Shown piece after piece: positions 5,582 to 10,730 of a DNA stretch of 60,113 nucleotides. The notes beneath the pieces are model-generated. The model searched no databases. It had not been told where the DNA came from and saw only the letters and a list, made by a program, of their open reading frames with translations. This stretch comes from a virus. Lineage: Duplodnaviria; Caudoviricetes. The number at the start of each line of letters is the position of its first letter. Positions within the stretch are counted from its first letter, which is position 1. The stretch lies in the IMG/VR virus record IMGVR_UViG_3300030105_001581, positions 1 through 60,113 of that record; one strand, written 5' to 3'. Position numbers and translations under genes: made by a program.

Positions 5582-6085
5582 TTACCAGAGCGCTATTATG
5601 TTAGAGGCCGTTGTTCCCGTTGCCCATACTTTTATTACTTGAACTGGGAAGAATGCGCCTGTGTTTATTCCTGTAAATGTTACATCATCTCCAGCAATAG
5701 TTGTTACTCTTAGATTTCCAGCCGTTCCAATATATAAAACAGCCCCCTCTTGAGTTCCGCCATATATTGCATATGCTTTAGCCGTAGTAGCAAAAATATT
5801 TTGAGCAACCAAAATTGTTGTTCCATTGACAACCTGCTTAACAGTTGTCTGCGTTCCGTCGGTAGTATTAACAATAATCATCCCAATCTGAATACCTGAC
5901 TTTGTAAAACTTAAAGTAGCTAAGTTTCCGATGTCACTGCCTGTTCTGCCTGCATCAATTAATTGAGTAGCACTACCCGCAGTAGTAGTTCCAGTTACAC
6001 CATCCAATCCCGTATTGGGAATGTCTGTGTTATCACTATTGTTTACTGCCCACGCTTTTCCAGCTTGTAGTTTTTGATATGCCAT
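5582..6085 (-). CDS. Putative virion decoration/spike-base protein
   Basis: 167 aa; C-terminal LYIGTAGNLRV...GAFFPVQVIKVWATGTTASNIIALW resembles small head-spike base proteins. Confidence 0.55.
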   Translation of the reverse strand: MAYQKLQAGKAWAVNNSDNTDIPNTGLDGVTGTTTAGSATQLIDAGRTGSDIGNLATLSFTKSGIQIGMIIVNTTDGTQTTVKQVVNGTTILVAQNIFATTAKAYAIYGGTQEGAVLYIGTAGNLRVTTIAGDDVTFTGINTGAFFPVQVIKVWATGTTASNIIALW

Positions 6086-6088
6086 GTT

Positions 6089-6244
6089 TTATTGTTTATA
6101 AGGAAATGCTCGGTTTAAAGTATCACGCCTATCGTCACACCCACAGTCGGCATCCATAGCATTAGCAACTTTATCAACCACATACTTTATTCCTGTGGCT
6201 GTAGTAAATTTTGCTACACTATCTCCGAATCCTTTTGATTTCAT
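6089..6244 (-). CDS. Microprotein, 51 aa (GFGD...TGIK...CGC..RR..LN motif)
   Basis: Hand translation MKSKGFGDSVAKFTTATGIKYVVDKVANAMDADCGCDDRRDTLNRAFPYKQ; start overlaps upstream stop (TAATG). Confidence 0.7.
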   Translation of the reverse strand: MKSKGFGDSVAKFTTATGIKYVVDKVANAMDADCGCDDRRDTLNRAFPYKQ

Positions 6245-6405
6245 TATTGATTATTTATTTTTCGCATTGTCTTGGCGAAATTGTATTTCTTTGAACCAGG
6301 AGGACAACTTGAACTTCCATACTTTCTTCCCGTGCAGTCACCTAGAGTACCTCTGCGCTTTGCTCCTTGAAAAACATTCTGTATAAAGTTCTTACTATCT
6401 GCCAT
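6244..6405 (-). CDS. Basic microprotein, 53 aa
   Basis: MADSKNFIQNVFQGAKRRGTLGDCTGRKYGSSSCPPGSKKYNFAKTMRKINNQ; TAATG coupling at both ends. Confidence 0.7.
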   Translation of the reverse strand: MADSKNFIQNVFQGAKRRGTLGDCTGRKYGSSSCPPGSKKYNFAKTMRKINNQ

Positions 6406-6560
6406 TAGTTCATGTTTGAATCGGCAGAATATGGATTCTCACCATAATGTTTCATCATTCCCTTTGATTCGTTTCGACGAGACTTCATTGACTGAGATTT
6501 TTTCCCATTACGTGCCCCTAAAGATTCATTGAGTCTTGAGTTGTAACCTTGCTTTTTCAT
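6405..6560 (-). CDS. Basic microprotein, 51 aa
   Basis: MKKQGYNSRLNESLGARNGKKSQSMKSRRNESKGMMKHYGENPYSADSNMN; TATCTTTG promoter just upstream. Confidence 0.7.
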   Translation of the reverse strand: MKKQGYNSRLNESLGARNGKKSQSMKSRRNESKGMMKHYGENPYSADSNMN

Positions 6561-6583
6561 AATAAATATTTTATTTATAAATA

Positions 6584-6591
6584 CAAAGATA
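6584..6591 (-). promoter_or_regulatory. Bacteroidota-type -7 promoter element TATCTTTG
   Basis: Matches TAnnTTTG consensus; intergenic, 23 nt before the ATG at 6560. Confidence 0.65.
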
Positions 6592-6607
6592 GTAATATTT
6601 TCGTTGT

Positions 6608-6862
6608 CTATTTTTTAGACTTAGCGCCTACACATTTCCAACGTTTTCTCGATAAATTGTTTGGGGTATTGGGATCGTTTTGTTTCTTTTTACTAAGTCG
6701 TTTTTTGATCCCTAGGCTTCTGGCGCAGTAGCTGTCGCCTTTAGAAGTGCCTGGTTTTACTCTAGGTCCTCCGCCCTTAGCTTTACCGGCTTGACCATAG
6801 CTTACTCTTTTGCCGGTTGATGTAATTTTTACTTTTGCCTTTCCTTTTCTAGGAGTTGCCAT
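6608..6862 (-). CDS. Highly basic small phage protein
   Basis: 84 aa, K/R-rich; VSYGQAG...PGTSKGDSYCARS...RKRWKC. Confidence 0.75.
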   Translation of the reverse strand: MATPRKGKAKVKITSTGKRVSYGQAGKAKGGGPRVKPGTSKGDSYCARSLGIKKRLSKKKQNDPNTPNNLSRKRWKCVGAKSKK

Positions 6863-6982
6863 TTACTGTTTTTTATGACTATAGTTTAGTTTTTTAAGAC
6901 GGTTATGATCTGCTACTGTCTTAGCAATTTTTACTATTCCCGTCTTGCTATACATTTTGTGTACCTTAAATGCTTTCGCCAT
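6863..6982 (-). CDS. Basic microprotein, 39 aa
   Basis: MAKAFKVHKMYSKTGIVKIAKTVADHNRLKKLNYSHKKQ; abuts neighbours on both sides. Confidence 0.65.
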   Translation of the reverse strand: MAKAFKVHKMYSKTGIVKIAKTVADHNRLKKLNYSHKKQ

Positions 6983-7104
6983 TATTTTTTTATTGTTTTA
7001 ATTTTTCCATTTGTAGTACGAGCGAATATCTTGTCTTTAGTTTCTCTAATAAAAGTTCCACTATAGGTTTTTCCGCCCCACTTCCAACTAACTTTTTTAG
7101 CCAT
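6982..7104 (-). CDS. Basic microprotein, 40 aa
   Basis: MAKKVSWKWGGKTYSGTFIRETKDKIFARTTNGKIKTIKK; TAATG overlap with next gene. Confidence 0.65.
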   Translation of the reverse strand: MAKKVSWKWGGKTYSGTFIRETKDKIFARTTNGKIKTIKK

Positions 7105-7105
7105 T

Positions 7106-7186
7106 TTACTTATTTAAGTGCGAGCCGTCACAGTTTCCATCTGAATTAGATGTATTACCGCATTGGCACATAGGTTGTTTTTTCAT
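7106..7186 (-). CDS. CDGSH-type iron-sulfur motif micropeptide, 26 aa
   Basis: MKKQPMCQCGNTSNSDGNCDGSHLNK; C-x-C-x9-C-D-G-S-H; in-frame stop upstream so no longer ORF. Confidence 0.65.
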   Translation of the reverse strand: MKKQPMCQCGNTSNSDGNCDGSHLNK

Positions 7187-7204
7187 CGTTCTATTTTTTA
7201 TCGA

Positions 7205-7360
7205 TTAGTATCCGGATTGAGTTTTTTTCTCCATACCGTAGTTTGGATTGTTTTTAATCTTTCCGCTATTCATGCTTGCAAAAACTGAAGCTTGAGCTTT
7301 CCCCACCGCGTTGTATGGGAATATTCTTTTTTTTCCGTTTGGTAATTTTACTGTTGGCAT
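7205..7360 (-). CDS. Basic microprotein, 51 aa
   Basis: MPTVKLPNGKKRIFPYNAVGKAQASVFASMNSGKIKNNPNYGMEKKTQSGY. Confidence 0.65.
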   Translation of the reverse strand: MPTVKLPNGKKRIFPYNAVGKAQASVFASMNSGKIKNNPNYGMEKKTQSGY

Positions 7361-7362
7361 AA

Positions 7363-7494
7363 TTAAGCTGTTGTTATAGGTTTTTTTGTTCTGAATACAG
7401 TTCCTGCTGGTCCTGTTCCGGCTATTATTCTTTTATTTCTCTTAGCTTTTCTCGCTTTCATTCGAGCTAGCATCTTACTTCCTCCGTGTGGCAT
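7363..7494 (-). CDS. Basic microprotein, 43 aa
   Basis: MPHGGSKMLARMKARKAKRNKRIIAGTGPAGTVFRTKKPITTA; 2-nt gaps to neighbours. Confidence 0.6.
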   Translation of the reverse strand: MPHGGSKMLARMKARKAKRNKRIIAGTGPAGTVFRTKKPITTA

Positions 7495-7496
7495 AA

Positions 7497-7622
7497 TTAT
7501 ATATTTACTATTACATAACTCTCACCATTCCAAACTCTTTTTGTTGTCGGAACTTCTACTTTAGGTGCATCTTCTTTTTTAGATGAAGCTTTATTTTCTG
7601 TTGTTTTCTTTTTTGTCGCCAT
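7497..7622 (-). CDS. Lys-rich microprotein, 41 aa
   Basis: MATKKKTTENKASSKKEDAPKVEVPTTKRVWNGESYVIVNI; 4 nt after the stop of 7627..7971. Confidence 0.6.
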   Translation of the reverse strand: MATKKKTTENKASSKKEDAPKVEVPTTKRVWNGESYVIVNI

Positions 7623-7626
7623 AATA

Positions 7627-7971
7627 TTACTTTTTAATAGTTTTAATGTCAGATAGCTTTTCTATTATTTGCTTCTGCATGTCAATTATCATTTGTTCTA
7701 ATTGATCATTCCTAACCTCCATCTGATGATTAGTAGAACTTAGGGATTCGTTTTTCTTTTGAAGTTTATTCACCTCATCTGGCTGTTGACCGATTATCGT
7801 ATAAACTACAACACCTAAACTAGAGACAAGTGTACCAACGATTGCTACAAATAAATCTTTGTTCACAGGTGGAACTTCGACGTAAGATAAGAATATTAAC
7901 AACATGATTATTAAAAGAAATATTCCAGCTGCTCCAGCGTAATGTCTTATGTCTTTGTGATCTGTTGTCAT
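7627..7971 (-). CDS. Two-TM membrane protein with C-terminal coiled coil
   Basis: Two hydrophobic stretches (about aa 12-31 and 40-60) followed by a heptad-like Q/E/K tail. Confidence 0.7.
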   Translation of the reverse strand: MTTDHKDIRHYAGAAGIFLLIIMLLIFLSYVEVPPVNKDLFVAIVGTLVSSLGVVVYTIIGQQPDEVNKLQKKNESLSSTNHQMEVRNDQLEQMIIDMQKQIIEKLSDIKTIKK

Positions 7972-7977
7972 AATTTA

Positions 7978-7995
7978 TATCTTTATGCAAAGTTA
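7978..7995. promoter_or_regulatory. Overlapping oppositely oriented -7 elements (TAACTTTG on - at 7988-7995; TATCTTTA variant on + at 7978-7985)
   Basis: Both lie in the 38-nt gap between divergent genes 7627..7971 and 8010..8459. Confidence 0.5.
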
Positions 7996-8009
7996 TAAAA
8001 TTAAATCTA

Positions 8010-8459
8010 ATGAAATCAAAGAGAAAAAACGACTACATGAAGCACTGGAAGATAGTGCGTAATTTAGCTAAAGCAAGATACGGACTTACCGTTCCAGACT
8101 TAGACATGATGTTCTTCATGTACAGTGAAGAATATTTTACAAAAGAAAAATATCGTGAATTTGAAAAACTACTCCGATGGGAATCAATTCGTTTCAAAAG
8201 ACTACTGAGAGATGGTTGGATAGAAAACTATAAAACTAAAAAAAAGAGTGCACGATCTATATATGGCCTATCATTCAAAGGGCAAAGAGCAATAGGCTCT
8301 CTCTATTCACAATTAAACGGAGGTTTATTCCCAGAAGATATTAGGGTAAACCCACTTATAAAAACTAAAAACGTTCCCTACATATACTACCTAAACGCTA
8401 AGTTTATAAAAAGCATAAATAGCTTTATAAAACAACAACAACATCGTTCTCCTGAATGA
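8010..8459 (+). CDS. Putative winged-helix DNA-binding protein
   Basis: 149 aa, basic; LTVPDLDMMFFM...FKRLLRDGWI...IYGLSFKG resembles a MarR-like wHTH; only + strand gene in this block. Confidence 0.5.
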   Translation: MKSKRKNDYMKHWKIVRNLAKARYGLTVPDLDMMFFMYSEEYFTKEKYREFEKLLRWESIRFKRLLRDGWIENYKTKKKSARSIYGLSFKGQRAIGSLYSQLNGGLFPEDIRVNPLIKTKNVPYIYYLNAKFIKSINSFIKQQQHRSPE

Positions 8460-8682
8460 TGGTATAGGCTATATTATCAATAAGCATCGTATAACCCGCG
8501 CGTTTGTCGTAGTATATCTCGCTGTCTTTCTCAATTGCTATTACGTCAGTGCCTATCTCAACAATCCTGCCCTTCTTATAGCGAAGTTTATTGGCATCGT
8601 CAGAAGAAAGTAACAACCCAGAGGAGGTTTTAATCTCCTCCTCAATTGTTTTTATTACTATATTTTTTCCTATTGGCTTCAT
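8425..8682 (-). CDS. groES: Co-chaperonin GroES (Cpn10)
   Basis: MKPIGKNIVIK..EEEIKTSSGLLL mobile loop, KGRIVEIG, YTIIQENDVV. Confidence 0.85.
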   Translation of the reverse strand: MKPIGKNIVIKTIEEEIKTSSGLLLSSDDANKLRYKKGRIVEIGTDVIAIEKDSEIYYDKRAGYTMLIDNIAYTIIQENDVVVVL

Positions 8683-9116: not shown

Positions 9117-10730
9117 TTAGTTTTTAGATTCGTATGAACGGGCCATAGTAACTATGGCGTTGGTTGATAATATAGTTACTGCCACTGAGACAGCATTTTG
9201 CAGGGCTACCTTTGTAACTTTTACAGGGTCTATGATTCCCATCTTAATCATATCTCCAGTCTTACCAGTCTTAACGTCAAGTCCGAAACCTTTTTTGTCA
9301 TCACTAGAAACTTTCGTGTACTCTATACCAGCGTTTTTTAATATTTGAAGTAAAGGAGCTTTAAGCGCCGAGCTTAAAATCGCGCCAGCGATCAATTTTG
9401 AAAATTTAGCTTTGAACTTTGACTTGCCCATCTCTAGGTTAGCATCTTGTAGTGCTACCCCTCCTCCTGGAAGTATCCCCTCTGAGAGTGCGGAGCGTAC
9501 TGCACACACCGCGTCATCAACACGGTCCATCAGCTCCTTCTGCTCTAGGTCTGTAGCACCCCCGACTTTTATAACACCTACCCCCCCAGTTAGTGAGGCG
9601 ATACGAGACGCTATAAATTCCTTATCAATTTTTTTAGTGGAGCCCTTGTGCGCATCCCACAACTCTTCAACCCTCTGATCGATCATCTGGTCATCGACAT
9701 GTGTGTCGTCTTTCATCACGATGGTCTGGTCAACGCCAACAATTATTTTCTTAGCCCTACCGAGGTCACTGAAACTTATGATCGACAGATCATCTCCCGT
9801 ACTCTGTGAAAAATAAGTAGCGCCAACTGAGAGAGCAATGTCGTTCATCAGCTCGTGTTGTTTGTAACCAAAGTTGGGAGGAACGATGGTACAAAGTTTC
9901 AAATTGTTCTTCATGACATTTGCTGCCAACGTATTTATTACGTTTTGAGAACAAGGCGCTACTATTAATAATTTTTTATTGTCTGCTATGATCGGTTTTA
10001 GCACGTTCTCAATTGAAAGTATGTTATTTATCTCAGCATCAGACACTAGCACATGCACATCCTCCAGGATACACTCGTCTTTTTTGTGGTTGTTCACGAA
10101 CAGGTGTGATGAATACCCGCGGTCTATCTTAATTCCATGGGTAGTCTCGAAGGTAGTGTCAGAGGTCTGGCTCTTTTCAACGGTCACGATGCCGTTCTTA
10201 CCCACTTTTTTATAAGTATCCGCTATAATAGCACCTATCTTAGGGTCATTGTTTGATGAGATGGTTGCCACGTCCAATAACTTCTGGTCAGTTACAGGCT
10301 CCGCCCATTCTTTTAAGCACCCTATCACATCCTCAGTGTGCGACACTAACTCTCGAAGTATCTCTGTCTTGTTATCCTTGGGGGTTATAAGTTTCATGCC
10401 CTCTTTTACTATGGCCTCTGTAAGTACAATAGCCGTGGTGGTCCCATCACCAGCCTCACTGGCTGTGCGGTCTGCCGCCTCTTTCATCATCTGAACTGCT
10501 AGGTTCTCTACAGGGTCTAGTAGTTGAATGCTCTTGGCTACTGTTACCCCATCCTTTGTCACGGTGATCCCATGAGTGTGATTAGGTGACTCTATAAGCA
10601 CCGTATTACCCATTGGTCCCAATGTGCTCTTCACTGCGTTTGACAGTTTCGTTATTCCCGATATAAGTTTTGATTGTGCGTCTGCACCAAAGTGCAAATC
10701 TTTTGGTGAATACCCTCCCGATTCATTCAT
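9117..10730 (-). CDS. groEL: Chaperonin GroEL (Cpn60)
   Basis: 537 aa; AVKSTLGPMG, VTKDGVTVAKSI, AGDGTTTA, GILPGGG, GIIDPVKV; no GGM tail. Confidence 0.97.
   Translation of the reverse strand: MNESGGYSPKDLHFGADAQSKLISGITKLSNAVKSTLGPMGNTVLIESPNHTHGITVTKDGVTVAKSIQLLDPVENLAVQMMKEAADRTASEAGDGTTTAIVLTEAIVKEGMKLITPKDNKTEILRELVSHTEDVIGCLKEWAEPVTDQKLLDVATISSNNDPKIGAIIADTYKKVGKNGIVTVEKSQTSDTTFETTHGIKIDRGYSSHLFVNNHKKDECILEDVHVLVSDAEINNILSIENVLKPIIADNKKLLIVAPCSQNVINTLAANVMKNNLKLCTIVPPNFGYKQHELMNDIALSVGATYFSQSTGDDLSIISFSDLGRAKKIIVGVDQTIVMKDDTHVDDQMIDQRVEELWDAHKGSTKKIDKEFIASRIASLTGGVGVIKVGGATDLEQKELMDRVDDAVCAVRSALSEGILPGGGVALQDANLEMGKSKFKAKFSKLIAGAILSSALKAPLLQILKNAGIEYTKVSSDDKKGFGLDVKTGKTGDMIKMGIIDPVKVTKVALQNAVSVAVTILSTNAIVTMARSYESKN

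Follow-up and report, generated by a model that had tools for sequence, protein, structure and literature searches.

The window analysed here, meaning the whole stretch of 60,113 bases, is a complete IMG/VR virus record rated 100% complete. On its minus strand, a 26-codon ORF with an ATG start and a TAA stop lies within a co-oriented block of small genes (Table 1). Minus-strand ORFs encoding 51, 53, 51, 84, 39, 40, 26, 51, 43, 41 and 114 aa are packed into positions 6089-7971, and ten of the 11 junctions in 5582-7971 lie between a 1-nt overlap and an 18-nt gap, the remaining gap being 47 nt. The 26-aa gene is itself separated by 18 nt from the gene before it and by 1 nt from the gene after it. 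The TAA of the preceding 51-aa gene is an in-frame stop seven codons 5' of the ATG, and the segment from stop to stop begins SIKNRTMKKQ. The placement of the ORF in a microprotein block and the upstream in-frame stop, both described in an earlier note made from the letters of this DNA, are thus correct.

Table 1. Coordinates of the 26-aa gene, its parts and its surroundings in the window.
Feature	Positions	Strand	Details and basis
26-aa gene	7106..7186	-	ATG 7186-7184, TAA 7108-7106; encodes MKKQPMCQCGNTSNSDGNCDGSHLNK; basis: ORF calling and pN/pS
17-residue Cys3His module, C7 to H23 (C-Q-C-G-N-T-S-N-S-D-G-N-C-D-G-S-H)	7118..7168	-	invariant residues and synonymous ligand codons
Ligand codons of the 26-aa gene	C7 7166-7168, C9 7160-7162, C19 7130-7132, H23 7118-7120	-	
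18-nt A-rich spacer and in-frame TAA (7205-7207) of the preceding 51-aa gene	7187..7207	-	
Co-oriented small-gene block holding the 26-aa gene	5582..7971	-	between tail-fibre-like genes and GroES/GroEL
40-aa gene directly downstream of the 26-aa gene	6982-7104	-	weak Hva1_TUDOR-like match, 12.9 bits, E 0.12
84-aa gene, very basic product	6608-6862	-	DUF6321 match below threshold, 17.1 bits against a cut-off of 28.5
Phage-encoded GroES	8425-8682	-	46.6 bits
Phage-encoded GroEL	9117-10730	-	445.5 bits

Around the block, PHROG matches are to tail fibre, GroES and GroEL proteins, the chaperonin pair lying just upstream of it. The remaining block genes at 6089-7622 on the minus strand encode conserved microproteins of 39-53 aa, mostly rich in Lys/Arg, and no PHROG match of known function was found among them. 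One of the 51-aa products (MPTVKLPNG...) has 211 confirmed relatives in IMG/VR, and another contains a D-C-G-C-D motif. The 84-aa protein has at least 593 confirmed relatives in IMG/VR, with identities up to 95% and on contigs of 5-60 kb; this small gene is thus very widespread among phages. When positions 6000-8000 were compared with GenBank phages by blastn, the sole match, 141 nt in a Roseobacter phage, fell inside this DUF6321-like gene, which has one 72% DNA match, in Roseobacter phage CRP-7. A different 40-aa microprotein with four Cys (W-I-C-G-C-G ... C-G-E-C), resembling a small zinc ribbon, is encoded on a related phage contig (L003:637-756, plus strand). No iron-sulfur-related family was matched by the 10 further window ORFs that were scanned.

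A 26-codon ORF by itself is within chance expectation; the conservation of this one, however, is not. Relatives were gathered from IMG/VR through the neighbouring 51-aa gene, and among the best 80 of 211 confirmed places, nine encode the peptide with all four ligands in the same small-gene block. Since only these 9 of 80 related phage loci carry it, the peptide is evidently dispensable; it was found in none of the 80 loci gathered through the 84-aa neighbour (the best 80 of at least 593). In several relatives there is a 4-nt overlap between the ATG of the peptide and the stop before it, and 2-3 nt separate the peptide stop from the start of the gene that follows.

Selection was estimated by Nei-Gojobori counting on the window and 12 loci, giving 13 sequences with 11 distinct DNAs; L174, L175 and L177, which have a one-residue length difference or a different start, were left out. 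Across the 11 distinct DNAs, pN/pS is 0.139 over codons 2-26 and 0.09 when only codons 5-26 are counted; the two remaining frames of the coding strand give 2.47 and 2.38. Variable sites are spread over the three codon positions as 3/3/18, placing 18 of 24 at the third. The Cys codons vary between TGC and TGT and the His codons between CAC and CAT, with synonymous changes only, at every ligand. A selection analysis and the survival of the Cys and His residues in related phages were among the checks on which the earlier note had made its proposal depend, and both speak for a genuine gene, the ligands being kept in the nine neighbour-derived loci and in 69 IMG/VR loci described below.

The alternative that we are dealing with a chance ORF, or with a non-coding stretch conserved for some other reason, draws on the expected occurrence of 26-codon frames and on the finding that the peptide matches no family in NCBIfam or PHROGs. 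It has to contend with a pN/pS of 0.09 in frame and about 2.4 out of frame, with the dominance of third-position variation, with ligand codons that change only synonymously and with hundreds of homologues, and no Rfam family or tRNA was matched in the window. We consider it scarcely credible, and the least probable of the explanations weighed here. Judged by these coding statistics, the 26-aa ORF is a real gene under purifying selection. Its transcription is hinted at by a 151-nt contig from an RNA library (X18, record 19), which matches positions 7125-7261 without mismatch, and contigs from RNA libraries of three studies match other parts of the block 5582..7971. This is a hint only, as such contigs may derive from contaminating DNA.

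The earlier note had called the product a stand-alone CDGSH iron-sulfur micropeptide. According to Lin et al. 2011 (PMC3174974), CDGSH domains have the consensus PhiCXCXX(S/T)XXXPPhiCDG(S/T/A)H, with eight residues between the second and third Cys and a Pro before the hydrophobic residue. The same paper holds that the Fe-S binding module needs a beta-sandwich dimerization module, with an N-strand and a lid-proline P motif [GP-Phi-X-Phi], to form an integral domain. The 26-aa peptide has the ligands of these domains, three Cys followed by one His, arranged as C7-x-C9-x9-C19-D-G-S-H23. Its loop (C-Q-C-GNTSNSDGN-C-DGSH) spans nine residues rather than eight and contains no Pro; against the published consensus, the note had both points right. 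Because only six residues precede Cys7 and three follow His23, the peptide cannot hold an N-strand, a P motif or a beta-sandwich.

In a Pfam hmmscan at E<=10, zf-CDGSH (PF09360) was the sole match of the peptide, and no other zinc-finger, knuckle or ribbon family with Cys/His ligands was matched at that threshold. The profile search that the earlier note had proposed thus singles out the expected family, but with a score of 11.2 bits (E 0.47), below the gathering cut-off of 29.5; other members with x9 spacing only that were scanned gave either no match or 12.6-25.1 bits. The alignment covers the 17 positions at the end of the 48-position profile (31-47), in line with the view that the peptide is essentially only the cluster-binding loop. 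Its membership of the CDGSH domain family, on the other hand, has to be given up, in view of the x9 spacing, the score of 11.2 bits and the missing N-strand, P motif and beta-sandwich.

Homology to that family is a separate matter. The best PDB match of the module is a 3tbm chain (E 2.5e-4), aligned with a one-residue deletion in the loop, and no PDB chain with x9 spacing was found. With CDGSH domains (CISD/NEET, PF09360), as represented by the prokaryotic type 4 with its single motif and by 3tbm, the peptide shares the ligand set and order, and its loop likewise opens with C-x-C-G-x-[ST] and closes with C-D-G-S-H. It differs from type 4 in having x9 instead of x8 and in lacking the Pro, which in many relatives sits one position earlier and is followed by x-Gly, and it differs from the 69-aa chain of 3tbm in its 26-aa length and in having neither N-strand, lid-proline P motif nor beta-sandwich. 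Full-size tandem CDGSH proteins with one x8 and one x9 loop exist (P0088, P0141, P0320, P0370, P0389); P0088 scores 62.1 bits against PF09360, and P0141, whose x9 loop falls within the stretch that matches best, 46.5 bits. As these tandem proteins mix x8 and x9 loops, the homology of the module to the CDGSH loop is well supported, and the comparison of motifs and profiles indicates that the peptide descends from a CDGSH cluster loop, yet stands outside the domain family as defined.

The peptide belongs to a family defined by an invariant 17-residue module, C-x-C-G-x-[TS]-x3-x-G-x-C-D-G-S-H, with nine residues between the second and third Cys. It aligns with other members gaplessly across the module in three family alignments and has no flanking elements of the CDGSH fold; P0111 and L163-L176 are closely homologous to it. 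When IMG/VR was scanned with eight aligned peptides, 114 pattern matches were obtained, 69 of them confirmed, and all 69 loci have x9 spacing. In 21 of these loci the protein is short (<=47 aa); in 32 the module is N-terminal (proteins of 81-110 aa), in 11 it is C-terminal (54-222 aa) and in five internal. Phage proteins of 108-110 aa (L178, L187-L189, L196-L221), found in 31 of the 69 viral loci, begin with the module and continue into a conserved C-terminal domain of some 85 aa without a Pfam match.

In 25 module segments chosen as diverse, one per distinct form, the two first Cys, the Gly after them, the Gly before the third Cys and the whole C-D-G-S-H are invariant (25/25), and in an alignment of 73 short proteins the same nine positions are unchanged in all 73. 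The family is also large in wider protein collections. In a collection of 5.8 billion proteins, queried with an alignment whose first row is a 41-aa member, 517 proteins of 13-79 aa with the module were found at E<=0.01 among 1020 candidates, and 341 longer proteins among 5521 candidates. With a profile of 73 short members, 299 cluster representatives were found at E<=0.001 among 1.84 billion; the best 150 of these 299 comprise 131 with x9 only, three with x9 plus x8, four with x8 only and 12 with a damaged motif.

The module also occurs in repeated and fused forms. Some members contain two modules (44-72 aa), others three, and there are fusions to YceI via a hydrophobic segment (P0223, P0230, P0353, P0369), to the C-terminus of MarR (P0175), to FKBP (P0166), to dUTPase (P0240) and to PAP_fibrillin (P0121). 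Three alga-like proteins (P0121, P0122, P0312) carry three x9 modules in a row, P0121 being the one fused to PAP_fibrillin and P0122 having a transit-peptide-like N-terminus, while P0314 and P0364 consist of repeats of loop-only modules with ordinary x8 spacing. In P0172 and at L285:4890-5081, the miniprotein ORF continues from a CobS_N-like N-terminal piece (44.2 bits), which suggests that in some contigs the miniprotein gene lies directly behind a cobS-like gene. With two cluster loops per chain, the tandem miniproteins (P0001-P0024) resemble tandem CDGSH proteins of types 5 and 6 (Lin et al. 2011; PDB 3tbn). They differ in their linkers, which are short and made of Pro/Ala/Lys, in contrast to the structured spacer of about 20 residues plus strands given for types 5 and 6 in PMC3174974; unlike either, the phage peptide has a single module.

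Searches by tblastn against GenBank phages gave no match for the peptide at E<=1 or E<=10, nor for a 109-aa module protein. We found no paper describing such miniproteins, although the supplementary alignments or the "orphan group" of Lin et al. 2011 may already list x9 or loop-only sequences. In relation to the known CDGSH domain, the peptide is a loop-only, x9-spaced derivative.

The family is not peculiar to phages, as the note's picture of a phage iron-sulfur carrier might have led one to expect. Cells encode the module as proteins of 27-30 aa, and the 30-aa forms are found on contigs of up to 1.69 Mb, one of which bears the NCBI name of a Formosa MAG; for a tandem 57-aa form, the source name points to an Opitutaceae MAG. 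The cellular context was read from source names and from metagenome contigs, using the best 80 of the 522 places that were confirmed in a scan with 15 sequences. For the 27-30-aa forms in these 80 loci (52 distinct), pN/pS is 0.13. Of the 64 loci with at least 700 nt upstream, 45 have a YceI-like gene (PF04264, 91.6 bits) immediately 5' of the miniprotein gene and co-oriented with it, as do 50 of the 80 overall; the two genes are -4 to 57 nt apart, and the contigs are marine and Flavobacteriia-like. Among the same best 80 of 522, YceI is adjoined by a divergent HxlR-type regulator gene in 29 loci and by a co-directional MarR-type gene in 11. The arrangement of HxlR (or MarR), YceI-like gene and miniprotein gene is conserved among L232-L311 (for example L280:904-1906), with a rhodanese gene nearby in nine loci. 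Downstream of the cellular miniprotein gene, trpE, trpG and trpD are found in 12, 9 and 8 loci. No YceI gene was found in the phage window or in 229 viral loci.

The primase/helicase of the phage has its closest cultured relatives in phages of Flavobacterium, Maribacter, Polaribacter, Cellulophaga and Tenacibaculum, besides an uncultured record at 59% identity, and because these are phages of Flavobacteriia, a flavobacterial host is likely.

The trp genes bear on the idea that the product is a leader or regulatory peptide, or a precursor resembling those of RiPPs, that is, not a folded protein at all. A very short, Cys-rich peptide encoded upstream of trpE/G/D in host-like contigs would suit such a role. 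A leader would not be expected to conserve its whole core as amino acids, however, or to have the same core fused into larger proteins; moreover, the peptide has no Trp codons, and no modification enzymes were found in the conserved neighbourhood or among the window ORFs scanned. We therefore hold this explanation to be very improbable.

The cellular copies also weigh against a further suggestion of the earlier note, that the peptide competes with host CDGSH proteins. As a decoy, it would take clusters from full-size CDGSH proteins of the host or block their partners. Its loop is homologous to the CDGSH cluster loop, and CDGSH domains of type 4 and type 7 are reported in Bacteroidetes by Lin et al. 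2011 (PMC3174974). Yet host-like bacteria encode a similar miniprotein under purifying selection and in a conserved operon, and since they encode the same kind of miniprotein, a normal function shared by phage and host is a simpler account than an anti-host device. A decoy thus appears improbable to us, if less so than a leader peptide.

As to what that shared function is, on balance we favour, with a little more confidence than doubt, the view that the gene encodes a translated phage miniprotein of the loop-only x9 family, a CDGSH-homologous metal knuckle that likely holds a [2Fe-2S] cluster and adds to or replaces the YceI-linked miniprotein of the host. C7, C9, C19 and H23 would bind the metal center through the 17-residue loop, and this center would be a labile, redox-active [2Fe-2S] cluster in preference to structural zinc.

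Zinc is nevertheless the alternative that deserves the most attention. The peptide could be a structural zinc knuckle, in which Cys3His binds one Zn(II) and the 17 residues form a rigid adaptor for protein or nucleic acid with no redox role. Small zinc-binding modules typically occur as add-ons to unrelated proteins or free, and the present module is found both free, as a miniprotein, and attached to one or the other terminus of many unrelated proteins. Retroviral-type zinc knuckles, rubredoxin and desulforedoxin are very short folds set by one metal site; the module is likewise short and an add-on in many proteins, although its ligand spacing is different. Some members bear the automatic JGI name "CDGSH-type Zn-finger protein", and the small proteins encoded next to the gene in the window are very basic. 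The peptide also has none of the elements that are reported in PMC3174974 as required to hold the cluster.

Other observations speak against zinc. The D, G and S of CDGSH are as invariant as the ligands, a signature that also surrounds the [2Fe-2S] ligands in CDGSH domains, and the x9 loop replaces an x8 loop within full-size tandem CDGSH proteins that score above the Pfam threshold. Besides, YceI, PAP_fibrillin, MarR and HxlR, which are partners of the module, are proteins that bind quinones or isoprenoids, or sense redox state. It is because of the invariance of the whole C-D-G-S-H signature, beyond the ligands alone, because x9 loops stand in for x8 loops in true tandem CDGSH proteins, and because of the nature of several of the partners that we rank a [2Fe-2S] cluster first. 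A zinc knuckle is the main rival, and a live one, though we think it less likely than not.

The [2Fe-2S] reading has difficulties of its own. The beta-sandwich requirement set out in PMC3174974 would count against cluster binding by a bare loop, and every solved CDGSH structure that we found has a loop shorter by one residue, so that the geometry of a cluster is not guaranteed. To our knowledge, there is no natural [2Fe-2S] protein of 25-30 residues. Without a beta-sandwich for shielding, two modules would be expected to pair, or one to dock to a partner; the shielding that full domains receive from the beta-sandwich would then probably come from a second copy of the module or from a partner protein, and the existence of natural tandem forms is in keeping with pairing. 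An AlphaFold2 model of a 30-aa member, made with 73 aligned rows, is of moderate confidence (mean pLDDT 65.8, pTM 0.24) and contains no strands of three or more residues, and a complex modelled from two 30-aa copies and two 2Fe-2S clusters reached 0.12 and 0.10, where the mark is 0.42; these scores count neither for nor against such a complex.

In an infected cell, the copy carried by the phage could supplement the host's YceI-linked miniprotein or stand in for it, which we offer as a conjecture. The iron or redox sensing suggested in the earlier note is likewise conjectural. A bolder version, which we put forward tentatively and think doubtful as a whole, is that proteins of 25-30 residues from this family are the smallest known natural [2Fe-2S] proteins, their bare 17-residue loop pairing with itself or docking on a partner; that in marine Flavobacteriia they serve as the redox-active partner of a YceI/HxlR/MarR stress locus with ties to quinones or isoprenoids; and that phages carry a copy, or graft the loop onto proteins of their own, in order to tap or reset this circuit during infection.

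If the loop alone binds a cluster, the miniprotein would rank as a natural, minimal Fe-S protein whose size allows chemical synthesis and NMR, and would provide a direct test of what the beta-sandwich contributes to CDGSH domains; a [2Fe-2S] cluster in a bare loop would, if true, overturn the view that the CDGSH loop needs a beta-sandwich. Whichever metal is bound, this is a conserved miniprotein family that lies below most annotation cut-offs, with no Pfam match above threshold and none in NCBIfam or PHROGs, and that is common to abundant marine bacteria, algae-like sequences and phages. It comes with a testable set of genomic partners: the YceI operon, the HxlR and MarR regulators, and the fusions to YceI, MarR, FKBP, dUTPase and fibrillin. 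For phage genomes more generally, it means that tiny ORFs in "microprotein" blocks can be real, selected genes.
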